Assembly (NCBI GenBank): GCA_964408935.1
Contig: CAYPBF010000003.1
Span: 1-55,006, forward strand
Length of the DNA: 55,006 nt
Source: an uncultured Dehalococcoidales bacterium
GTDB lineage: Bacteria > Chloroflexota > Dehalococcoidia > Dehalococcoidales > BS750m-G39
Reading direction: 5' to 3'
Position numbers and translations under genes: made by a program. The notes under the pieces are model-generated. The model worked only from the letters and a program-made list of their open reading frames with translations, searched no databases and was not told where the DNA came from. Shown one piece after another: positions 26,358 through 37,892 of the stretch. Numbering within the stretch: position 1 is the first letter of the stretch; every line of letters starts with the position of its first letter.

Positions 26358-26361
<4 letters not shown>

Positions 26362-27440
26362 GCGGGCGGGGGTGTTTCCGTCAGTGTGACGTAGGCGGTT
26401 TGCTGGCTGTCGCCCCGCCAGAAGACGACTTCCACTTCCTCACCGATTTCCTTGGAATGTATCGCCTGGACCATCTCCTCGGCGGTGGTTATAGCTTCAC
26501 CACCGAAGCTGACGATGACGTCGCCAGGTTCCAGGCCAGCGGTGGCGGCGGGACTGACGGTGGCCATGCTGGTAATGAGGGCGCCCTCATTCACCGCCAG
26601 GCCGTAGGTCATTACGGCATACTCATCCACGGTGTAGAGCACCACCCCCAACCAGGGGCGGACGACGTAGCCGTTCTCAATCAGCTCCTCGATGATGGGC
26701 ATGGCCGAATCGCTGCTGATGGCGTAGCCCATGCCCTCTACGCCCACCTGAGAGACTTTGACGCTGGTGATGCCGATAACCTCGCCGGCCATATTTACCA
26801 GCGGGCCGCCGCTGTTACCGGGGTTGATGGCGGCATCGGTCTGAATCAGGTCGTCCAGGGTCTGCCCGGCTGCCACTGACAGGGAAATATCCTTGGCGCT
26901 GACGATGCCCTTGGTGGCGCTTATGCCCAACCCCAGCGAGTTACCGATAGCCACCACCCAGTCGCCCACCCGTAAGGCGTCGGAATCACCCACCTTAACC
27001 GCGGGCAGGTTGACGGCGTTGACCCGGATTACGGCCAGGTCGCTCAACGAGTCGGTGCTTATGGTCACGGCGGAGAAGGTCCGGCCGTCGGCCAGGGTCA
27101 CGATAACGCTCTGCGCTCCTTCTACCACGTGGTTGTTGGTCACGATGACCCCGTCTTCATCTATAATCCACCCCGAGCCCGCCCCCTGCTGTGTGTAGGG
27201 GCGGTTGAAGGCGTCATAGCCGACGTACTCGGTGTTGATGGCCACCACCGAGGGCCTGACCAGGGCCACCACGTCGGCAATAGTGAGCGTTGACGAGGTG
27301 TCTATAGCGACGGGTGGGGCGACGGTGGGGTCGCCTGAGCTGGGTGGCTCGGTGCTTACCAGCGAGCAGCTGCTGCTCAAGACCAGGCTCATAATGATAA
27401 CCAGGGCGATGACCAGGTGTCTTATCTTTAGCGCTTTCAT
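26358..27440 (-). CDS. htrA: HtrA/DegP-like serine protease with one PDZ domain
   Basis: TNNHVV, DLAVI, TDAAINPGNSGGPL, PDZ domain; N-terminal membrane anchor or lipobox-like Cys. Confidence 0.93.
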
Positions 27441-27631
27441 AAATAGTCTCCTCGACTTCGGCTTTATCTTTATAACGTGCCAGGCAAGCTATGGTTAGCT
27501 GTCTCTGGTACCATTCCTATAATACTGATTGTAGCACTACGGGTAGGCTGGGGCAAAGTGATTTCTGTCACCTTTCCAAAGGGGCCAAAATCTGTTATAG
27601 TTTACCCCAGTCTTATAAAGGAGGAGGTCGG

Positions 27632-28327
27632 GTGGCCGAGACGGTGATAGCGAAAGCCAGAGGCGAAGGCAGGACGGTGCTGACCGAGGTCGAGTCCAAA
27701 CAACTGCTCGGCCAGGCGGGCATCGACGTGGTTGAGACTAGACTGGCCACTTCCAAGGAAGAAGCTGTTTCCATAAGCGAGGAGCTTGGTTTCCCCGCAG
27801 TACTCAAGATAGCCTCGCCCGATATTATTCACAAGAGTGACGCGGGCGGGGTCAAACTGGGGCTGGAAAGCGCCCGGGCGGTGGGGCAGGCCTACGACGA
27901 TATCATAGCCGCCGCCAAGCAAAAATATCCCAAGGCCAGGATTCTGGGGGTGGCCGTGCAAAAGATGGCGCGCCCTGGCGTCGAGGTTATTATCGGAATG
28001 TCCCAGGACGAACAGTTCGGGCCCGTCCTCATGTTCGGGCTGGGGGGCATACTGGTGGAGGTGCTCAAAGACGTCTCCTTCCGCCTCGTTCCCTTAACCA
28101 AGCGGGACGCCGCTGAGATGGTCAGGGAGATAAAGGGCTACCCCCTACTTGAAGGCTATCGGGGAGGGGAAGTGGTGAAGATAGCCTACCTGGAGAATTT
28201 GCTGCTCAAGGTGTCTGATTTTGTCGAGAAAAATCCTGAGGTCAAAGAGCTTGACCTCAACCCTATTTTTGCCTACAGCGATGGTGCTTTAGCCGTAGAC
28301 GCCAGGGTAATACTGGACTCAAAATGA
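27632..28327 (+). CDS. Acetate/acyl-CoA ligase (ADP-forming) beta subunit (ATP-grasp)
   Basis: LTEVESKQLL, VLKIASPDIIHKSDAGGV, FGPVLMFGLGG.LVEVLKD, ELDLNP; GTG start with SD GGAGGAGG. Confidence 0.92.
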   Translation: MAETVIAKARGEGRTVLTEVESKQLLGQAGIDVVETRLATSKEEAVSISEELGFPAVLKIASPDIIHKSDAGGVKLGLESARAVGQAYDDIIAAAKQKYPKARILGVAVQKMARPGVEVIIGMSQDEQFGPVLMFGLGGILVEVLKDVSFRLVPLTKRDAAEMVREIKGYPLLEGYRGGEVVKIAYLENLLLKVSDFVEKNPEVKELDLNPIFAYSDGALAVDARVILDSK

Positions 28328-29832
28328 ATCTGAAACAGATGTTGGAAGGGGCGGCCAAGCGCTACGCTGACAAGACGGCAGTAGCTATGGGCGAGCGTCG
28401 GCTGTCCTATGCCGAGCTGGACGAGGCCGCAAATCGGGTGGCCAACGCCCTGGTGGGGATGGGGATAACTCAGGGCGACCACGTCGCCCTGCTGCTGGCC
28501 AACAGCCCCGAATTCGTCGCCGTCTATTTCGGGGTGGTCAAAATCGGGGCCATTGCCGTCCTGCTCGACCCCAAGTATAAGCTCACCGAGCTGGTCTCCT
28601 TGTGTGACGACTCCAGGCCCAGGGTCCTGATAACGGAAAGCCCCTGCCTGGAAGAGCTGATGCCTGTTATGGACAAATTCAAGTCCGTGGAACACGTTAT
28701 CGGCCTGACCCCACGCTCGCGAAGAAAAATCGTCACCTACAAAAAGATTATGGAGGAAAGCCCCGCCTCACCAGTCAACATAGAGCCGGCGCCCGAGGCT
28801 ATCGCCCATATCGCCTATAGCTCGGGGCCTTCCTTTAACCCGCGGGGGGTAGTGCTGTCCCACGGGACACTGGTTGAGGAGGCGGATATATCGGGTGACA
28901 GCTTCGAACAAACGGATAGAGACGTCGTTATTCTCTTCGCCCTGCCCATGCACCATGCCTTCGGGCTGGTGGTGGTCATGATGACGGCTATTGCCCAGGG
29001 CAGCACGGTGGTGATGCTTTCGGGGCTTTCCCTGGATAGCCTCTTCGAGCTTATTGAGCGGGAAAAGGCGACCATATTCATGGGGGTGCCTTTCGTTCAC
29101 GGGCTCATCGTGGAGTTCATCGAAGATGGCTGGCTGAAGCACGACCTGAGCTCGCTGCGCATCTGGGGCACGGCTGGGGCCGCCATGCCCCCCAGGATTG
29201 CCGAAAAGGTGAAAGAGCACGTCGGCCTGACCCCGGTCAACTTTTGGGGGATGACCGAATCAGCGGCACAGGTCAGCTGCACCACCCTCGACGGGCGGGG
29301 GGCAGCCAACTCGGTGGGTAGAACTCTGCGCGGCTGGGAGCTGAAGATAGTCGATGACGAGGGACGTGAGCTGCCCACAGGTGAGACGGGCGAGATAATA
29401 GTCAAAGGCCCCATTATGGACGAGTACTACAACAACCCTCAGGTGACAGCCCAGATAATCAAGGACGGCTGGCTCTATACCGGTGATATGGGCTGGCGGG
29501 ACGATTCAGGCTGGCTCTTTTTGGCCGCGGGCCGTAAGAAGGACATGATTATCAGTAAGGGGCAGAATATCTCCCCCAGCGATGTCGAAGAGATAATCAG
29601 CCGTCACCCTAAGGTGGATGAGGTGGCGGTGTTGGGTATCGCTGACGAGTCGAGGGGAGAGACGCCGCGGGCGTTCGTAAAGTTAAAGACGGGCAAAAAG
29701 ACGAGCGAACGGGTGATAAAGCGTTTTTGCCTGAAGCACCTGGCCAACTACAAAGTGCCGCGGGAGGTTGTCTTTATCAAGTCCCTGCCCAGAACCGCCA
29801 ACGGCAAAATCGATAAGGAAAAGTTGAGATGA
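28324..29832 (+). CDS. AMP-dependent acyl-CoA/acyl-ACP ligase-family protein with deviant P-loop
   Basis: LPMHHAFG, WGMTE, GWLYTGD, GRKKDMIISKGQNI, PRTANGKIDK. Confidence 0.85.
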   Translation: MNLKQMLEGAAKRYADKTAVAMGERRLSYAELDEAANRVANALVGMGITQGDHVALLLANSPEFVAVYFGVVKIGAIAVLLDPKYKLTELVSLCDDSRPRVLITESPCLEELMPVMDKFKSVEHVIGLTPRSRRKIVTYKKIMEESPASPVNIEPAPEAIAHIAYSSGPSFNPRGVVLSHGTLVEEADISGDSFEQTDRDVVILFALPMHHAFGLVVVMMTAIAQGSTVVMLSGLSLDSLFELIEREKATIFMGVPFVHGLIVEFIEDGWLKHDLSSLRIWGTAGAAMPPRIAEKVKEHVGLTPVNFWGMTESAAQVSCTTLDGRGAANSVGRTLRGWELKIVDDEGRELPTGETGEIIVKGPIMDEYYNNPQVTAQIIKDGWLYTGDMGWRDDSGWLFLAAGRKKDMIISKGQNISPSDVEEIISRHPKVDEVAVLGIADESRGETPRAFVKLKTGKKTSERVIKRFCLKHLANYKVPREVVFIKSLPRTANGKIDKEKLR

Positions 29833-31070
29833 AACGAAGAGTAGTCATTACCGGAATGGGCCTGCTCACGCCGCTGGGGGTGGGGACAGAGGCGAACTGG
29901 CAGGCGCTTTGCCAGGGGAAATCGGGGGTGGGGCCAGTGACCCATTTCGACGCGGGCGAGTTCCGCACCCAGATTGCTGGTGAGGTAAAGGACTTTGACC
30001 CCCTCGACTTTGTCGACCGCAAGCTGGCCAGGCGTGGCGATCGCTTTATCCACTTCGCCCTGGCGGCGGCGCGGATGGCGCTGGAAGACGCCAAACTTAA
30101 GATTGACGCCTCTAACGACGAGCGGGTGGGGGTTTCGGTGGGTACGGCCATGGGCGGTATCGAGAGCATCGAGAAAAATCATGAGCTTTTGATAAAGGGA
30201 AAGCGGCAGCAGATTTCCCCCTTCTTTGTTCCCAGCTTCCTGGGTAACATGGCTACGGGGCAGGTTGCCATCAGCTTTGGGGCCAAGGGGGCCAATATGT
30301 GTACGGTGACCGCCTGTGCCTCGGGGACGCACGCCATCGGCGACGCCGCCGTTGTTATCCAGCGTGGCGATGTCGACGCCATGATTGCCGGCGGTACCGA
30401 GGCCGCCATCAGGCCGCTGGTCTTTGCCGGACTGGACCCCTTAAAGGTAATGTCGGCCCGCAACGATGCCCCCGAAAGAGCCAGCCGCCCCTTCGATAAA
30501 GAGCGCGACGGCTTTATCATCGGCGAGGGGGCAGGCATGGTCATTTTGGATGAGCTGGAATCGGCCCAAAGGCGGGGGGCCAAGATTTACGGCGAGGTTT
30601 TGGGCTACGGCCTTAACAGCGACGCCTATCACATCACCGCCCCCGACCCCGAGGGCCTGGGCGCCGCCGCCTGCATGAGGCTGGCTTTAGAAGATGCCGG
30701 CATTTCCCCCGACCAGGTGGACTATATAAACGCCCACGGCACCTCGACGACGCTCAACGACCTCTCCGAGACCAGGGCCATCAAGGACGTCTTCGGCGAG
30801 CTGAGCCGTAAGATACCGGTCAGCGCCAACAAATCGATGATGGGGCACATGTGGGCAGGGGCGGGGGTGGCCGAGGCCATCGCCAGCCTGCTCACCATCC
30901 GCGACGGCATTATTCCGCCCACCATCAACTACGAGACGCCCGACCCCGATTGCGACCTCGACTACGTACCCAATGAAGCCCGGAAGGCTAAAGTAAACAT
31001 CGCCCTCTCCAACTCCTTCGGCTTCGGCAGCACCAACGGCTGCCTCATCTTAGGGAAATTTTCCCCTTAA
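29829..31070 (+). CDS. fabF: Beta-ketoacyl-ACP synthase II
   Basis: RRVVITGMG, TACASG, YINAHGTST, KSMMGH, SNSFGFG. Confidence 0.94.
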   Translation: MKRRVVITGMGLLTPLGVGTEANWQALCQGKSGVGPVTHFDAGEFRTQIAGEVKDFDPLDFVDRKLARRGDRFIHFALAAARMALEDAKLKIDASNDERVGVSVGTAMGGIESIEKNHELLIKGKRQQISPFFVPSFLGNMATGQVAISFGAKGANMCTVTACASGTHAIGDAAVVIQRGDVDAMIAGGTEAAIRPLVFAGLDPLKVMSARNDAPERASRPFDKERDGFIIGEGAGMVILDELESAQRRGAKIYGEVLGYGLNSDAYHITAPDPEGLGAAACMRLALEDAGISPDQVDYINAHGTSTTLNDLSETRAIKDVFGELSRKIPVSANKSMMGHMWAGAGVAEAIASLLTIRDGIIPPTINYETPDPDCDLDYVPNEARKAKVNIALSNSFGFGSTNGCLILGKFSP

Positions 31071-31097
31071 AAAATCCCCTTTAAGCCTGGTCGGCTA

Positions 31098-31126
31098 TTG
31101 TCAAAAAGGGTGAGGTATGCTATATT
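31098..31126 (+). promoter_or_regulatory. Sigma-70 promoter of the small membrane-protein gene
   Basis: TTGTCA-17-TATATT with extended TG. Confidence 0.7.
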
Positions 31127-31130
31127 CTAT

Positions 31131-31151
31131 ATACCTAGAATTACTATGTAT
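31131..31151. promoter_or_regulatory. Candidate PadR operator 1
   Basis: ATACCTAG-N5-CTATGTAT dyad starting 5 nt after the -10 box; homologous to operator 2. Confidence 0.65.
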
Positions 31152-31229
31152 TTAGAATAACCAGCTATCTCTTGTTGTCAAGGCAGCAGTCTCGATATGA
31201 ATCAAAGGAAAGGAGGTGAGCGCTAGATA

Positions 31230-31373
31230 ATGAAACTTCTAAGTCTAGCTATCTGTTCCCTGGGTATTTGGGTTTTCCTGGGTCCGTTGGTTTCGGCCGA
31301 TTGGGTCGCCTACGTCTTCGGTGGCTTAGCCGCCGTACTGGCTTTCTTAGCTGCATTTATGACGAAATCATAG
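31230..31373 (+). CDS. Small 47-aa two-helix membrane protein (SPW-repeat-like), absent from ORF track
   Basis: MKLLSLAICSLGIWVFLGPLVSADWVAYVFGGLAAVLAFLAAFMTKS; strong SD AAGGAGGTGA; own promoter. Confidence 0.8.
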   Translation: MKLLSLAICSLGIWVFLGPLVSADWVAYVFGGLAAVLAFLAAFMTKS

Positions 31374-31482
31374 CCAGGCTGGCTACTATTTATTCCCTCA
31401 TAGAGTCTAGTCAAACTCACCGAAAACTACGGGACTGCTGCCTTGACTGGCTCGACCTTTAAGCTCTCTCTTCTAGAACGTG

Positions 31483-31511
31483 TTGCAAAGCGGAGTACTG
31501 TGTATTATTAT
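31483..31511 (+). promoter_or_regulatory. Sigma-70 promoter of padR
   Basis: TTGCAA-17-TATTAT. Confidence 0.65.
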
Positions 31512-31515
31512 ATTG

Positions 31516-31536
31516 ATGCATAGGGTTACTAGGTGT
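31516..31536. promoter_or_regulatory. Candidate PadR operator 2
   Basis: ATGCATAG-N5-CTAGGTGT dyad starting 5 nt after the -10 box. Confidence 0.65.
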
Positions 31537-31556
31537 TATAAGGCGAGGTGAACGGT

Positions 31557-31892
31557 ATGGCACAGAGACGTGAACTCATCAAGGGCAGTTTCGATTCCCT
31601 AATTCTTTGTCTTCTCGACCAGCAGTCGATGTACGGCTACCAGATTATCAAGGAGCTGGAGAAGCGTAGCCAAGGCTATTTCCGCTTTAAAGAAGGCACC
31701 CTCTATCCGGCCCTGCACCGCCTGGAGCAATCGGGCCTAATCGAGGGCAAGTGGCAGATGTTGCCTAACGGGCGGCAGCGAAGATACTATCACATCACGG
31801 AAAAGGGGCTTCACGGTCTGGAAACCAAGCGGAGCCAGTGGCTGGATTTCTTGGCAGCGATGAACCTGATTATTCGCCCTCAGTCTGACTGA
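31557..31892 (+). CDS. PadR-family transcriptional regulator
   Basis: MYGYQIIKEL, KEGTLYPALHRLE..GLI, RRYYHITEKG. Confidence 0.95.
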   Translation: MAQRRELIKGSFDSLILCLLDQQSMYGYQIIKELEKRSQGYFRFKEGTLYPALHRLEQSGLIEGKWQMLPNGRQRRYYHITEKGLHGLETKRSQWLDFLAAMNLIIRPQSD

Positions 31893-31904
31893 TGAGGTGT
31901 TGAA

Positions 31905-32804
31905 TTGGCGACGACGCTGACTCATTATCTGGAAATAGTCAGGGATAACCTGAGGCTGGACCGCACCACCGCGCGGGAGGTCCTCAAGGAACTGGCGGCG
32001 CATATCGAGGACGAGGTCCAGGAGCTGAAGGAGGCTGGGCTGTCGGATGAAGAGGCGGCGGATGCCTGTTTGACGCTGATGGGTTCGGCCAAGACGCTCG
32101 CCCGCCAGATATACGAGAGCCACAGCCAGGGTAGCTGGACTCAGGCGCTTTTTGCCGCTATGCCCCACCTGCTTTTCGGTCTGCTCTTCGCCCTCAACTG
32201 GTGGCAGGGTGTTATCGGGTTGCTAACGGCGCTGGTGGTACTTCTCGGAGTGGTGGTCTACGGCTGGTGGCGGGGCAAGCCCTCCTGGCTTTTCTCCTGG
32301 TTGGGCTACTCGCTGCTACCGGTGGTTTTTGCCGGACTGCTCCTGCTCTATCTGCCCCCGGGGTGGTCCTGGGTGGCCATCCTCATCTACATCCCCACGT
32401 CGCTGTGGCTGGTCTGTGCCTTTACTATGAAAGCGATAAAGCGGGACTGGTTATACAGCTCGCTGATGCTGCTGCCGCTGCCGATTATCATCGGCTGGTT
32501 TCTGGCCGTTGAACCGGTGGACAGGTCATCCCTCTACTGGCTGCAACGCCTCCAGGATTTCGCCCCCTGGATCGGGCTTACCTTCCTCTCCCTGGGGGTG
32601 GCTGTAACCACCTTCATCCGCTTGAGAAAACGCTGGCTGAGGATATCGGTCCTGGTAACAGCGGGGCTGATAACCTTGACCATGATTGCTTACTATGCCG
32701 AGGGCAGACTCAGCATACCCGCCTTTTTGGCTCTAGTCTTGGTGATGCTGATTCTACTGCTAAGCCCAGCTTTAGTAGAGCGGACGCTAAAGCATAGCGA
32801 TTGA
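31905..32804 (+). CDS. Membrane protein with N-terminal HAAS/permease-prefix domain
   Basis: YLE.VR..L...EL.AHIED...GLS.EEA...MGSAK.LA followed by multiple TM segments; typical PadR partner. Confidence 0.8.
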   Translation: MATTLTHYLEIVRDNLRLDRTTAREVLKELAAHIEDEVQELKEAGLSDEEAADACLTLMGSAKTLARQIYESHSQGSWTQALFAAMPHLLFGLLFALNWWQGVIGLLTALVVLLGVVVYGWWRGKPSWLFSWLGYSLLPVVFAGLLLLYLPPGWSWVAILIYIPTSLWLVCAFTMKAIKRDWLYSSLMLLPLPIIIGWFLAVEPVDRSSLYWLQRLQDFAPWIGLTFLSLGVAVTTFIRLRKRWLRISVLVTAGLITLTMIAYYAEGRLSIPAFLALVLVMLILLLSPALVERTLKHSD

Positions 32805-32859
32805 CATTTTCTAGGGGCGCTTAACTAGCCTGTGTTTTTTTAGAAGGAGGTGTCTGGCT

Positions 32860-33717
32860 ATGTCTGGAGTCAGAGTGGTTGCCGATAGCGCGGTCTGTTT
32901 GCCCAAAGAGCTTATAGAGAAGTACAACATCGAGCTGGTGCCGGAGACTATCATCTTTGGTACCACCGTCTATCGTGACGGCGTCGACCTAGTGCCCAGT
33001 GAATTCTACGTCAAGTTGGGGGAGGCCAAGGAGCTGCCGACGACATCGGCTCCCTCCCCTCAGGACTTTATTGATGTCTTCCAGAAGGTGGGTAAAGACG
33101 CCGATTCTATTGCCTGCATCTTGGTAACTGCGGGGTTCAGCCATATGGGTTTGCAGGCGGCTATGACCGCTCGTGAGAGCGTTCCCGAGCCGCCGATAGA
33201 GATTATGGACTCACGGACGGCGTTGGGTGCTTATGGCTTCGTCGTCCTGGCGGCAGCCAAGGCGGCCGCAGCGGGTAAGCCACTGCCCGAGGTTATCCAA
33301 GCCGCCCAAGACGTGCAGAAGCGGGTTACGATGATAGCTACCTTGAATACGATTAAGTATCTGGCCAAAGGAGGGCGCATCGGTAAGGCCGCCCACTGGG
33401 CTGGCACTCTGCTCAGCATTAAGCCCATCATAGAAGTACCTCCTTCCACCGGGGTTTTAGAACCGATAGAGAGGGTCAGAACCAGACGAAAGGCACTGCA
33501 GCGATTGCTAGAGATTATGCAGGAGAGGGTCGGCCAAGGACAGCGGGTACACGCTAGTATAGAACAGGCTAATGTGACCGAAGAAGCACAATGGCTTGAG
33601 TCTCAGCTAATATCGCTTTTTGATTGTGCCGAAATTTATATAAATGATTTCGCCCCCGTGGCTGGAGTCCACTGTGGACCGGGGGTAATTGGGATTTCCT
33701 TTTATACCGGGGACTGA
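32860..33717 (+). CDS. DegV-family fatty-acid-binding protein
   Basis: VVADSA, PTTSAPSP, IMDSRT, YLAKGGRI, HCGPG.IG. Confidence 0.92.
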   Translation: MSGVRVVADSAVCLPKELIEKYNIELVPETIIFGTTVYRDGVDLVPSEFYVKLGEAKELPTTSAPSPQDFIDVFQKVGKDADSIACILVTAGFSHMGLQAAMTARESVPEPPIEIMDSRTALGAYGFVVLAAAKAAAAGKPLPEVIQAAQDVQKRVTMIATLNTIKYLAKGGRIGKAAHWAGTLLSIKPIIEVPPSTGVLEPIERVRTRRKALQRLLEIMQERVGQGQRVHASIEQANVTEEAQWLESQLISLFDCAEIYINDFAPVAGVHCGPGVIGISFYTGD

Positions 33718-33731
33718 GGAGTCATTTCTTT

Positions 33732-34589
33732 ATGGCGCCAAAGGTAGCCGTCATTACCGACAGCATAGCCTGCCTCACTAAGGAGCTGGTGGAGCAGTAC
33801 GGCATCAGGATTGCTCCCATTAACCTCTATTTCGAGGATAGGACCTACCGTGACTGGGTGGATATAACCCCTGACGAAGCCTACAAGCTCTTTCTGAAAG
33901 ACCCTGATGCCTTTAAGACCTCGGGGATCAATCCCTCGGAGTGGATAGAGGCCTGCCGTGAGGCCAGCCGGGAGACCGACAGCATCATCTGTATCACCCT
34001 TTCCTCCAAACTGAGCATGGTCTATGACAGCGTTCTGGGGGCAAAAAAGCGCCTTGAAAAAGAGATTCCCGGGCTTTCCGTAGCGGTGATGGACTCCGAG
34101 ACAGTCACGGCCACCGAGGGCTTTGTCGCCCTGGCGGCGGCTCGGGCGGCGGAGGAGGGCAAGTCGTTGTCCGAGGTGGTTGAAGCTGCCGAGACGGTGA
34201 AGAAAAAGGTGGCTATGGTGGCCTTCCTGGATACCATACGCCATGTTTACCGCACCGGACGCATACCCAAGATAGCGGCTTTGGCCGGCTCAATACTTAG
34301 CATCAGGCCGATGCTCACCGTCACCGATGGGGTGGTCAAATTCATGGGCGTGGTGCGGAGCCGCGAGCGGGGCATAAAGAAGATGCTGAAGAAGATGAGG
34401 GAGAAGGTGGGCAAAAACCCGGTGCACGTGGCGGTGATGCACGCCTTCGCCCAGGAAGAGGGCGAGAAGCTGAAGGAACAGGTTGCCGCCGAGTTCAACT
34501 GCGTTGAGCTTTGGCTTACCGGTTTCAGCCCGGTGATGGGCTACGCCACCGGCACGGGCACGCTGGGGCTGGCTTTCTATGAAGATTAG
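33732..34589 (+). CDS. DegV-family fatty-acid-binding protein
   Basis: VITDS, SSKLS, VMDSET, GRI, SIRPML, G.GTLGLAF. Confidence 0.92.
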   Translation: MAPKVAVITDSIACLTKELVEQYGIRIAPINLYFEDRTYRDWVDITPDEAYKLFLKDPDAFKTSGINPSEWIEACREASRETDSIICITLSSKLSMVYDSVLGAKKRLEKEIPGLSVAVMDSETVTATEGFVALAAARAAEEGKSLSEVVEAAETVKKKVAMVAFLDTIRHVYRTGRIPKIAALAGSILSIRPMLTVTDGVVKFMGVVRSRERGIKKMLKKMREKVGKNPVHVAVMHAFAQEEGEKLKEQVAAEFNCVELWLTGFSPVMGYATGTGTLGLAFYED

Positions 34590-34604
34590 CAAGGGGAACC
34601 GGCT

Positions 34605-35495
34605 ATGAAGTGGTGGCTTAAGGTAATACTGGCGCTTCTTCTGGCGGTTATCGCCGCCTTTCTGGGGATTTCGGTCTACCTGGGGCACTCGATGACGGCC
34701 GTGGAGAGGCTGCCCATTACCGAGACCCCCGCTCTCTGCGGGCTTGACTACGAAGAGATAAGCTTTCCCAGTCGTGTCGACGAGCTGACCCTCTACGGCT
34801 GGTATATCCCGGCTGAGGACAGCGATGAGGTTATTATTATGGTGCACGGTGCCGAGCAACACCGTGCCGACCCGACCGTTAAGATGGTGGATATCGCCTG
34901 CGGGTTGGTGGAGCACGGCTATAACGTCGTCATGTTCGATACGCGGGGGCACGGCGAGTCCGAGGGGGACAGGATGTCGGCGGGCTATTTCGAAGTCAGG
35001 GACCTGGGTGGTGCCGTCGACTACGTGATGGCTTTGGGCTTCGAGGACATCGGGGTGCTGGGCTTTTCGATGGGTGGGGCCACTGCCATTCTGACCGCCG
35101 CCGAGGATGACAATATCGATGTCGTCGTCTCCGACAGCGCCTATGCCGATCTTAACGACATGATTGAGCCCCAGTTTGCCGAGCGCACCAGCTTCCCCAC
35201 CTTTTTCCTCCGCCCCCTGCTCTTCATGGTCAAGATGATGTACGGTATCGATTTTACCGATATCAAGCCCGTCGAGGTGGTGGGCGATATCGCCCCAAGA
35301 CCCATCCTCTTCATCCAGGGCGAACTCGACGATACCGTGCCCCCGGAGCATGCCTACAGCCTGTATGAAGCCTCGGATAACCCCTTAAACCAGCTTTGGG
35401 TGCTGCCCGATGTCGGTCATGTTGAGGCTTACGCCAGCTACCCTGAAGAGTATATGGACAGGGTGACCGCTTTCTTCGACGACGCTTTGAAGTAA
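34605..35495 (+). CDS. Membrane-anchored alpha/beta hydrolase
   Basis: N-terminal TM, MVHG, D.RGHGES, GFSMGG nucleophile, GELDDTVP, GHVEA. Confidence 0.9.
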   Translation: MKWWLKVILALLLAVIAAFLGISVYLGHSMTAVERLPITETPALCGLDYEEISFPSRVDELTLYGWYIPAEDSDEVIIMVHGAEQHRADPTVKMVDIACGLVEHGYNVVMFDTRGHGESEGDRMSAGYFEVRDLGGAVDYVMALGFEDIGVLGFSMGGATAILTAAEDDNIDVVVSDSAYADLNDMIEPQFAERTSFPTFFLRPLLFMVKMMYGIDFTDIKPVEVVGDIAPRPILFIQGELDDTVPPEHAYSLYEASDNPLNQLWVLPDVGHVEAYASYPEEYMDRVTAFFDDALK

Positions 35496-35556
35496 TTTCA
35501 TCCATTTCCCCCTATTATGTCTAGCCAAAATAGGCTAAACGCTCTATAATGGGGGC

Positions 35557-36141
35557 ATGGTTAGTCAATTTGTTTCTGACCTACAGCGGCTGACTGATGG
35601 GCTGGGGGAGCTCCCCGAGCCGACGGTCAAGCCGCCCTTTGTCGTCGTCAGCGGCCTGCCGGGGACGGGGAAGTCCTACTTCTGCGCCAAGCTGGCTGAG
35701 AGGCTGCCCTTCGTTATCCTGGAGAGCGACGCCCTGCGCAAGAGGCTCTTCTCGCCACCAAGCTACAGCCCCGAAGAGAGCGCTTACCTCTTTCGGACGC
35801 TGCACCAGCTCATCGAACGGCTGCTCAAAAAAGGCATTCCTCTCATCCTCGACGCCACCAACCTCTCCGAGCGGGACCGCGAGCGCCTCTACAATATCGC
35901 CGAGCGCCTCGACGCCCGTCTCATCCTGGTGCAGGTGGAGGCGCCGCCGGAGTTGGTCTACCAGCGGCTTGAAGCCAGAAAAAACGGCGAAAAATCGGTG
36001 GGCAACTCGGACGCCGACTGGGAGGTCTACCACAAGATGAAGCCAACGGTTGAGAAAATCGGCCGTAAGCACTATGTCGCTGATAGCTCGCGGGATATAA
36101 AGCCCATGCTGGATAAGGTGGTCAGGGAGGCGAGCCGTTAG
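35557..36141 (+). CDS. AAA_33-type P-loop kinase
   Basis: SGLPGTGKS, ESDALRK, LDATNL, SDADW. Confidence 0.85.
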   Translation: MVSQFVSDLQRLTDGLGELPEPTVKPPFVVVSGLPGTGKSYFCAKLAERLPFVILESDALRKRLFSPPSYSPEESAYLFRTLHQLIERLLKKGIPLILDATNLSERDRERLYNIAERLDARLILVQVEAPPELVYQRLEARKNGEKSVGNSDADWEVYHKMKPTVEKIGRKHYVADSSRDIKPMLDKVVREASR

Positions 36142-36172
36142 AAAATCGCTTTAAGTCAGGGGGTTTTTGGAG

Positions 36173-37234
36173 ATGACGGACACCAAGAAGATGAAAGAGC
36201 TGCTGGAGAGGCTGTCCAACGCCCACGGCATTTCGGGCTACGAAGGCGGCGTCAGGGATATCATTAAGAAAGAGGTCGGGGCCTGTGTCGACGAAGTAAA
36301 AGTCGATAACTTCGGCAACCTAATCACCATCAAGAAGGGGAAAGCGCCCTCGGTGATGATTGCCGCCCACATGGACGAAATCGGCCTGATGGTGAAATAC
36401 ATAGACGATGATGGTTTTATCCGCTTCGCTAAGGTGGGGGGCTGGTTCGACCAGACATTGGTCAACCAGCGGGTAGTGCTGCACACCAAGAAGGGTATGA
36501 TTACGGGCGTCATTGGCTCCAAGCCGACGCACGTGATGAAGACCGAGGATAGGAAGAAGGCGATTGAAGCTAAGGATATGTTCATAGATGTCGGCGCTGC
36601 TTCGCGTGACGAGGCCACCAAGATGGGTGTTGAGCCCGGGGTAGCAGTTTCGCTCGACCAGAAGCTGGCGACGTTAACCGACGACAGGGTCACCGGTAAG
36701 GCCTTTGACGACCGCGCCGGCGGGGCCGTGCTCATTGCCGCGCTGCAAAGCATGGCGGGCGTGAAATCAGCCTCGGTATTCGGTGTCTTTACCGTTCAGG
36801 AAGAAGTCGGGCTTAAGGGCGCCCGAACTTCGGCTTTCGGCTTAAACCCCGATGTCGGCATTGCCATAGATACCTGCATAACCGGTGACCACCCCGGTAT
36901 CAAGAAGACCGATTCGGCCATTGAAATCGGCAAGGGGCCGTCGCTTACGGTGATGGATGCCGGGGGGAGGGGGGTGATTACCCATCCCAAGGTGCTGGAG
37001 TGGCTGCGCGAAACGGCTAAGGCTGAGGGTATTCCCTGCCAGATGGAAGTCACCGAGAGTGGCAGTACCGACGCCTCGGCCATCAGCCTGACGCGGGAAG
37101 GCGTCCCTTCGGGGGTGATTAGCATCGCTACTCGCTATATCCACACACCAGTGGAGCTTTTAAGCCTGAAAGACCTCGCCCAGACCGTAGATTTGGTCGT
37201 CGCCGCCATAAAATCGGTCGGCAACTACTTCTAG
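36173..37234 (+). CDS. M42-family (TET-like) metallo-aminopeptidase
   Basis: AHMDEIG, KAFDDRAG, QEEVGLKGA, IAIDT, RYIHTP. Confidence 0.93.
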   Translation: MTDTKKMKELLERLSNAHGISGYEGGVRDIIKKEVGACVDEVKVDNFGNLITIKKGKAPSVMIAAHMDEIGLMVKYIDDDGFIRFAKVGGWFDQTLVNQRVVLHTKKGMITGVIGSKPTHVMKTEDRKKAIEAKDMFIDVGAASRDEATKMGVEPGVAVSLDQKLATLTDDRVTGKAFDDRAGGAVLIAALQSMAGVKSASVFGVFTVQEEVGLKGARTSAFGLNPDVGIAIDTCITGDHPGIKKTDSAIEIGKGPSLTVMDAGGRGVITHPKVLEWLRETAKAEGIPCQMEVTESGSTDASAISLTREGVPSGVISIATRYIHTPVELLSLKDLAQTVDLVVAAIKSVGNYF

Positions 37235-37244
37235 GGGGTTAGTC

Positions 37245-37892
37245 ATGCAGATTAAGTATCTGGGTCACTCTGCTTTTATCATAAGCTCGGCCGGAAGGGT
37301 AAAGATAATAACCGACCCCTATACCACCAGCCCTGACCTGACCTATGGTGAGATAAAGGCGACAGCCGATATCGTTACCGTGAGCCACGACCACTTGGAC
37401 CACTGTAACGTCGCCGCCGTCGGTGGTAACCCCCAGGTGGTGCGGCGGGTGGGGGTCTTCAGCGCTAAGGGCATAGAGTTCAAGGGTATTAACAGCTATC
37501 ACGACGACGATGGGGGGAGGATGAGGGGTGGCAATATCATCTTCTGCTTCGAGGTGGATCGCCTAAAGGTCTGTCATCTCGGTGACCTGGGCCATCGGCT
37601 CGACAATAAGCAGCTGAAAGAGATAGGCAAAGTCGATATCCTGCTCATCCCCGTGGGCGGTTACTTCACCATCGACGCCAAGGTTGCCACCGAGGTCTGC
37701 GAGCAGCTGAAGCCCGGGGTGATTATCCCCATGCACTACCGCACCAACAAGGGCCTGCCCGTCATCGCTGGGGTGGAAGATTTCCTGCGCGGTAAGGACA
37801 AGGTGAAGTGGCTGGATACCAGCCAGGTGGAGTTCAAGGCCGGCGAGCTGCCCGAGGCCGGCCAGATTATCGTGCTCAAATCAGCCTTGTAG
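37245..37892 (+). CDS. MBL-fold metallo-hydrolase
   Basis: YLGHSAF, SHDHLDH, HLGDLG, IPMHY. Confidence 0.9.
   Translation: MQIKYLGHSAFIISSAGRVKIITDPYTTSPDLTYGEIKATADIVTVSHDHLDHCNVAAVGGNPQVVRRVGVFSAKGIEFKGINSYHDDDGGRMRGGNIIFCFEVDRLKVCHLGDLGHRLDNKQLKEIGKVDILLIPVGGYFTIDAKVATEVCEQLKPGVIIPMHYRTNKGLPVIAGVEDFLRGKDKVKWLDTSQVEFKAGELPEAGQIIVLKSAL

Follow-up and report, generated by a model that had tools for sequence, protein, structure and literature searches.

A covarying RNA helix brackets the gene of a membrane microprotein next to a PadR-HAAS pair in uncultured Dehalococcoidia

The DNA analysed here, referred to as the window, is a stretch of 55,006 nucleotides from an uncultured Dehalococcoidales bacterium (contig CAYPBF010000003.1). 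Between fabF and a padR-family gene it carries a 47-codon open reading frame (ORF) enclosed by two complementary arms, which together form what we call the bracket helix; arms and ORF make up a small cassette with a promoter and a palindromic operator ahead of it (Table 1). The 3' UTR between the stop codon and the 3' arm measures 56 nt. Two degV genes follow on the same + strand after the HAAS gene, and the region from 26358 to 37892 codes for an HtrA-like protease, an ATP-grasp protein, an AMP-dependent ligase, FabF, the two DegV proteins and an alpha/beta hydrolase, giving the chromosomal neighbourhood of the PadR-HAAS pair a lipid, fatty-acid and envelope theme. An Rfam scan at permissive E-values returned two matches at chance level (E = 4-5), both outside the element.

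Table 1. Features of the cassette and its flanks (positions in the window)
Feature	Position	Strand	Basis or remark
fabF	29829-31070	+	Upstream of the cassette
P1 promoter, sigma-70-like, TTGTCA + 17 nt + TG-n-TATATT	31098-31126	+	10/12 matches, extended -10
Palindromic PadR-type operator, core CCTAG-N5-CTATG at 31134-31148	31123-31159	.	Inverted repeat, 88%
5' arm of bracket helix	31174-31194 (core 31177-31194)	+	Folding, inverted repeat, covariation
A-rich linker, strong SD AGGAGGT (31211-31217) and 13-nt spacer	31195-31229	+	
5' strands of clade-specific inner helices	31215-31220, 31222-31228	+	Within the linker/SD region
Gene of the 47-aa two-helix membrane microprotein (MKLLSLAICSLGIWV...)	31230-31373	+	Homologues, codon variation, AF2
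Stop-codon hairpin, terminator-like, then CTATTTAT	31371-31385	+	MFE; this sequence only
3'-UTR partners of the inner helices: GTCTAGT (31405-31411), anti-SD CTCACC (31416-31421)	31405-31421	+	Window's clade only
3' arm of bracket helix	31430-31451 (core 31430-31447)	+	Folding, inverted repeat, covariation
P2 promoter of padR, TTGCAA + 17 nt + TATTAT; operator-like site 31516-31537	31483-31537	+	
padR-family transcriptional regulator	31557-31892	+	PF03551 E = 3.8e-27; TIGR03433 E = 3.6e-28
Membrane protein with N-terminal HAAS/permease-prefix domain, predicted PadR sensor partner	31905-32804	+	

The ORF had been proposed as a gene in a preliminary description made from the sequence letters, and comparison with related sequences confirmed it. 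Homologues of the peptide numbered 37, with identities of 55-96%, and a pattern scan of metagenomes added 80 further loci, for more than 80 overall. Positions 4-15 at the N terminus (LSLAICSLGxWV) are nearly invariant, as are W25, VFG and A35, and the family has 17 invariant positions in all, while third codon positions vary freely (entropy mostly 1.2-1.9 bits). The combination of a conserved protein with free third positions indicates selection at the protein level and therefore a real gene. AlphaFold2, run with the family alignment, predicted helices at residues 2-22 and 25-46 (pLDDT 75), so that the peptide is modeled as a helical hairpin that has Lys at either end. We found no significant family for the window peptide in Pfam and NCBIfam, and a look-up of this exact peptide in public assemblies gave no record. 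Weak compositional matches to SPW (PF03779), DUF1003 and PspM appeared in the peptide searches. The resemblance to SPW repeats suggested earlier did not hold, as the SPW model reached 12 of 38 family members, all below threshold (best E = 0.0078), and did not match the window peptide. The family is narrow (20 clusters at E <= 1e-3 in a set of 1.84 billion representative proteins) and consists of unclassified microproteins that are predicted to span the membrane with two helices. A check of P0028 contigs for transcript-like ends came back with nothing beyond one contig of 951 nt. The related loci belong to MAGs of Dehalococcoidia/Chloroflexota and to four MAGs labelled Deltaproteobacteria, the cassette being present in none of those four.

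In the window, the genes after the cassette show both features of a HAAS-PadR dyad, a stand-alone PadR-like wHTH protein and an adjacent HAAS-TM protein. The latter scored 37.8 bits against the permease-prefix domain NF038403, above its cut-off of 30, and slightly below the cut-off of 27 against PF22564 (24.2 bits, E = 4e-5). Matches to PspC, Toastrack and LiaI-LiaF-TM domains were absent among the window proteins tested. Pairs of a PadR wHTH protein and a HAAS multi-TM protein have been proposed as transducers of membrane signals that could take the place of two-component systems (Ravi et al. 2024, PMC11237479). The arrangement is widely kept: of the 74 loci with enough sequence, 63 have padR directly downstream of the cassette (+133 to +275), and the HAAS gene follows padR in the window and wherever else the sequence extends far enough downstream. 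The P1 operator overlaps the -10 element and the predicted transcription start, which falls near 31133, about 41-44 nt upstream of the 5' arm; the transcript is thus predicted to begin before the arm. A promoter-like site was found at the homologous place in 44/64 loci, and the PadR-type operator named in the preliminary description proved to be a true palindrome, with an operator-like motif upstream of the 5' arm in 51/64. The promoters are of the type TTGACA/TTGCCA, 17 nt, TGCTATATT/TATTAT, and one or two CCTAG-N5-CTATG palindromes come directly after them; this order of promoter and palindrome precedes the 5' arm closely in 51/64 loci. As the P1 operator motif recurs after P2, the locus has tandem promoters with related palindromes. 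Most simply, the microprotein gene would be a target of the PadR-HAAS pair, and it is possibly a partner as well.

The two arms of the bracket helix (18 nt each, 94% complementary, one G.U on the + strand) have no second copy in the 55-kb window. When the segment 31170-31455 was folded, the helix appeared in both the MFE and the centroid structures, with a base-pair probability of 0.99 (z = -3.2 compared to dinucleotide shuffles). Repeat search and folding thus agree on the outer helix of 18 bp with one G-U that had been drawn before. Two further hairpins from the same drawing, at 31320-31336 and over the stop codon, were also present in the MFE, the second of them in 1/66 loci. The bracket is an RNA helix of 18-21 bp that closes the message into a single domain of about 270 nt.

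To look for the helix in the other loci, we compared the 100 nt before the AUG with the 150 nt after the stop codon by an ungapped search (78 loci, 20 shuffles each), used in place of RNAduplex, which over-extended across the long flanks with spurious pairs. In 70/78 loci there was a helix that outscored all 20 shuffles. Its 5' arm started 45-65 nt upstream of the AUG in every one of these loci and its 3' arm 16-92 nt past the stop, mostly at about +23-37 or +50-65. The conserved helix stops about 33 nt short of the AUG and resumes at least 16 nt after the stop codon, distances that place it outside the footprints of initiating and terminating ribosomes. In a MAFFT alignment of 66 distinct cassettes (alignment A2), RNAalifold recovered the bracket helix as the sole common long-range structure, with compensatory double changes in 12 of 13 pairs. 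A 17-pair version had 89.4% of its cells paired, compared to 79.2% in shuffles, and changes on both sides in 15 of 17 pairs. The covariation score was 0.41, against 0.216+-0.010 in shuffles (0/500 as high) and 0.06-0.21 when the partner was slid by 1-3 columns, so that the check on homologous loci proposed in the preliminary description came out in favor of the outer helix. Individual columns illustrate the exchange of pairs, one with AU 40, GC 23, GU 2 and CG 1 and none broken, and another with AU 27, GC 12, CG 12, GU 8 and UG 3. There were 49 different arm haplotypes, including CCAAGG/CCUUGG, CCGGGG/CCCCGG, CUAAGG/CCUUAG, CCACGG/CCGUGG and a shifted GCAAAAGCGGCAG/CUGCCGCUUUUGC, and sequences folded singly gave a mean bracket base-pair probability of 0.92. 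[quoted passage not shown]

The center of the helix behaves differently from its flanks, which covary. GGCAGC/GCUGCC (31180-31185/31439-31444; A2 columns 24-29/355, 354, 325-322) is near-invariant, with identity in 58-66 of the 66 sequences at five of the six pairs and 52/66 at the sixth. Such a core hints that some factor may recognize the duplex in a sequence-specific way. Separately, two loci (L081 and L097) have a 28-nt insertion in A2 columns 326-353 that contains a degenerate second 3' arm (GGCACTTCCG ... GGCACTGCTGC).

The preliminary description also drew helices nested inside the bracket, between the region of the SD and start codon and the 3' UTR. In the window, GGTGAG/CTCACC, GCTAGAT/GTCTAGT and ATGA/TCAT can indeed form, but the fold that enforces them lies 3.1 kcal/mol above the MFE and accounts for about 0.004 of the ensemble. 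The MFE has the SD paired with CUGGCUUUCUU in codons 36-40 instead, and GCUAGAU with AGUCUAGC in codons 6-8. The motif GCTAGAT (31222-31228) has alternative partners, AGTCTAGC (31245-31252, codons 6-8) or GTCTAGT (31405-31411); the two are direct repeats of each other, an arrangement that might work as a switch. Over the 39 loci with long 3' UTRs, the inner helices were 77%, 73% and 56% paired, compared to 93% for the outer helix. Duplexes between the RBS and the 3' UTR beat shuffles in ten members of the window's clade (p 0.01-0.07), by GGUGAG/CUCACC together with GCUAGAU/AUCUAGC. A short-3'UTR clade (L052, L053 and L055) has a separate pairing, GGUCA...AAGUG with CACUU...UGACU, which spans the GUG start. 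Taken together, pairing between RBS and 3' UTR reached p <= 0.05 in 13/66 loci, and in the remaining loci, about 50, RBS-3'UTR complementarity was no better than in shuffles. Family-wide, the SD paired with the CDS at a probability of 0.42 and with the 3' UTR at 0.16, and its pair probability was 0.68 when the 3' UTR was left out, while pairing of the RBS (-16..+3) was the same in native sequences (0.574) as after shuffling of the CDS and 3' UTR (0.575; Wilcoxon p = 0.97). The inner helices can be drawn and are significant in the window's clade, but they belong neither to the MFE nor to the family as a whole. Judged from these predictions, masking of the RBS by the 3' UTR is clade-specific and not a family mechanism.

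Two other observations concern the RBS. The window's clade (L002, L007, L009, L010, L015, L026, L028, L029, L038 and the window itself, 31212-31230) keeps the SD core GGAGG 13-15 nt away from the start codon, versus 8-9 nt in other clades, and the extra GAGCG of the long spacing is part of the inner helices. RNAalifold also paired the SD with codons 34-37, a pairing that we rejected as a selected structure given that covariation is not possible there and synonymous sites are unconstrained.

The long-distance pairing was the ground for comparing the locus with type I toxins, in which case the full-length mRNA would be translationally inert, its 5'-3' fold hiding SD and AUG until a trigger, 3' processing or another, opened it and the peptide damaged the membrane. 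We consider this explanation unlikely, although several features are in line with it. The 5'-3' closing helix exists and covaries, and mRNAs of aapA1/IsoA1 and hok/Sok, where such long-distance interactions are established, provide a precedent (PMC5416894). However, the conserved helix does not touch the RBS, and its 5' arm is away from the predicted 5' end. Complementarity between 3' UTR and RBS goes beyond chance in the window's clade and, independently, in L052/53/55, and the energy cost of the masking fold is small; even so, masking is missing in about 50 of 66 loci, is equal to shuffles over the family and takes up a minute share of the window's ensemble. The product is a small hydrophobic protein, a membrane peptide below 60 aa with two predicted helices. 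Two transmembrane helices and strong sequence conservation are nevertheless unusual for type I toxins, and here there are both, including the 17 invariant positions. Presence is patchy in close relatives, as a toxin module might be, but the gene is single copy, in fixed synteny with PadR-HAAS and under a common operator. Synteny and operator together are easier to reconcile with an effector or partner under regulation than with a selfish toxin module.

An antisense RNA would be the other half of such a system. No conserved sigma-70-like promoter was found on the minus strand, the maximum being 7/66 loci per 20-nt bin, and the minus-strand matches in the window are not conserved among the 66 loci, in agreement with the preliminary description, which had seen no convincing antisense promoter. 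An antisense antitoxin gene was accordingly not found; this statement covers sigma-70-like promoters at conserved positions on the minus strand of 66 loci. The toxin identity of the protein is unsupported. What remains of the type I toxin-like architecture is a conserved, covarying, closed 5'-3' fold with SD pairing possible in the clade, so that the resemblance to hok and aapA mRNAs holds for this sequence, whereas masking is neither predicted to dominate nor family-wide.

The bracket helix could also be regarded as a long-range terminator or insulator, which would form behind the polymerase and stop or attenuate read-through from the strong P1 promoter into padR, or between degV genes. This seems improbable. 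A local terminator after the 3' arm was detected in 1/66 loci, and 65/66 lack one after the ORF, which leaves room for such a function. T is enriched 5-8 nt past the arm (0.46), and runs of T5-6 occur in L020, L023, L041, L049, L060 and L080; yet a U-rich tract (>=5 T in 8) follows the 3' arm in 13/64 loci only, and in the window there is no T run after 31451. The helix of the degV-flanked loci, GCAAAAGCGGCAG...CUGCCGCUUUUGC and then UUAUAU, resembles a terminator save for its giant loop, but the "loop" of about 235 nt is unlike those of known intrinsic terminators, and we know of none that works with a hairpin of that kind. Two simpler versions were rejected as well. One is an intrinsic terminator past the 3' arm, the U tract being inconsistent among loci. 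The other is the stop-codon hairpin acting as a terminator that cuts off the 3' arm: a terminator between stop codon and 3' arm was present in 1/66 loci, namely the window, and the hairpin is consequently not a trait by which the family as a whole would lose the 3' arm from its transcripts.

The cassette is not tied to padR. In L070, L078, L081, L097 and L098 it lies between two degV genes without a promoter of its own, and in L032, L065 and L084 ahead of degV. The helix is kept in both degV settings with different arm sequences. The cassette is self-contained, and the helix travels with the ORF through three genomic settings. As a side note, the arms of the first group, GCAAAAGCGGCAG/CUGCCGCUUUUGC, are shifted and U-rich.

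Several relatives whose FabF and PadR proteins are 75-92% identical to those of the window lack the cassette. Aligned to window positions 31160-31470, L003-L006 and L011 kept P1 and the operator and miss a stretch that begins near the 5' arm and runs to about 8 nt past the 3' arm, while in L001, L012, L013 and L016-L018 both the cassette and P1 are missing. The boundaries of the loss are a few nucleotides from the arms, with junctions that vary slightly between loci. As the most divergent loci carry the cassette, we infer that loss is the likelier direction. These comparisons suggest repeated clean loss of the cassette, possibly promoted by the long inverted repeat itself. In the cassette-less relatives, P1 and P2 stand about 90 nt apart before padR.

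The kind of mismatches tolerated within the helix is informative about the level at which selection acts. In the 13 fixed core columns, non-Watson-Crick cells comprised 54 G.U and 6 A.C on the sense strand (binomial 1e-10, the sequences not being independent). A symmetric DNA element would have them in equal numbers, whereas only RNA made from the + strand can accept G.U while refusing A.C, and the excess of G.U therefore speaks for selection on the RNA of the + strand. The pattern points to a bracket helix that is selected at the RNA level, on the sense strand. An inverton or MITE was rejected on these grounds, on the constant orientation of the cassette and on the uniqueness of the repeat in the window. 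More generally, a DNA-level inverted repeat, i.e., arms that are recombination sites, that terminate a small mobile or invertible element or that are simply prone to form a cruciform, is very hard to credit: the cassette comes and goes as a whole, its limits close to the arms, and is known at three genomic positions, but it is never inverted relative to padR (63/63 loci), its arms are unique in 55 kb, there is no evident target-site duplication, deletion junctions differ by locus, and no transposase or invertase gene is nearby, in addition to the excess of G.U.

The reading that we favor, with a probability of roughly 45% for the whole of it, is a membrane microprotein under PadR/HAAS control, in which the closing helix most likely serves processing or stability and RBS masking is a clade-specific addition. 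According to this model, PadR would repress both P1 and P2 until the HAAS membrane protein, sensing a membrane or lipid signal, frees it. P1 would then yield the microprotein mRNA, with no terminator before padR. The bracket helix would most likely be a determinant of processing and stability, be it as a site for a double-strand endonuclease (RNase III type), as a barrier to exonucleases or as both. Against the RNase III option, 13 bp of conserved core is little for a classical site of that enzyme. The outcome would be a compact mini-mRNA with paired ends, its fate uncoupled from the flanking padR or degV message. In the window's clade, the closing stem might be extended by two helices that join the 3' part of the SD and the spacer to the 3' UTR; these would compete with the fold between SD and CDS and probably damp translation. 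Judged by synteny and the common operator, the microprotein is more likely to be an effector or feedback partner of the PadR-HAAS sensor than a toxin.

A bolder version, which we consider doubtful, is that the unit is a portable "mini-mRNA cassette". A double-strand-specific nuclease would excise the microprotein message, and in some clades the lock between 3' UTR and RBS would make that message activatable. If this were true, stability and translation would be set independently of the operon, whether at padR or between degV genes, and the cassette would represent a general device for the expression of membrane microproteins that has not been described before.

Long-range pairing between 5' and 3' UTRs is known in bacteria, but its members are few. 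As far as comparative analysis can tell, this example of long-range folding in a bacterial mRNA is well supported as well as rare, with a pairing signal that spans 66 distinct sequences from uncultured Dehalococcoidia. What is new here is a covarying, gene-bracketing and portable helix that comes with a new family of microproteins in a little-studied phylum. The element allows one to ask how long-range mRNA folding controls the expression of small proteins, and it bears on what PadR-HAAS systems regulate and on gene-bracketing helices as signals for mRNA processing outside rRNA operons.

In rRNA operons, the RNase III processing stems are long-range helices formed from both sides of a gene. 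The bracket helix is alike in being a long-range helix that flanks a gene within a longer transcript, but the stems flank rRNAs and the bracket an mRNA ORF, and cleavage is here hypothetical. With hok and aapA1, the locus shares a small hydrophobic ORF, an mRNA of about 250-270 nt closed 5' to 3' and, within the clade, possible sequestration of the SD. It differs from them in that no conserved antisense promoter was found, the 5' arm lies inside the predicted transcript and not at its end, masking is not family-wide, the protein has two predicted TM helices and the gene is linked by its operator to PadR-HAAS.

[quoted passage not shown] 2013, PMC3868564). A comparable anti-SD, CTCACC, is found in the 3' UTR of the window's clade. 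However, SD pairing is the interaction itself in icaR, whereas in the window the conserved helix is located about 35 nt upstream of the SD, and pairing of the SD is clade-specific and belongs to a fold that is not predicted to dominate. At the level of the neighboring genes, the locus matches the HAAS-PadR dyad in that a PadR wHTH gene stands next to one for a multi-TM protein that carries a HAAS domain at its N terminus; unlike the window, the parts of that description used here mention no microprotein gene or RNA element (PMC11237479).

[quoted passage not shown] Both have a 5'-3' UTR helix of about 14 bp on a short mRNA, placed outside the RBS and concerned, in our case putatively, with nuclease access and not with initiation. 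The hbs message is short and strongly translated, and it is a single, experimentally studied gene for a DNA-binding protein (PMC5737220). The bracket helix, by comparison, covaries over 66 loci, encloses the gene of a membrane microprotein and moves with it as a cassette.
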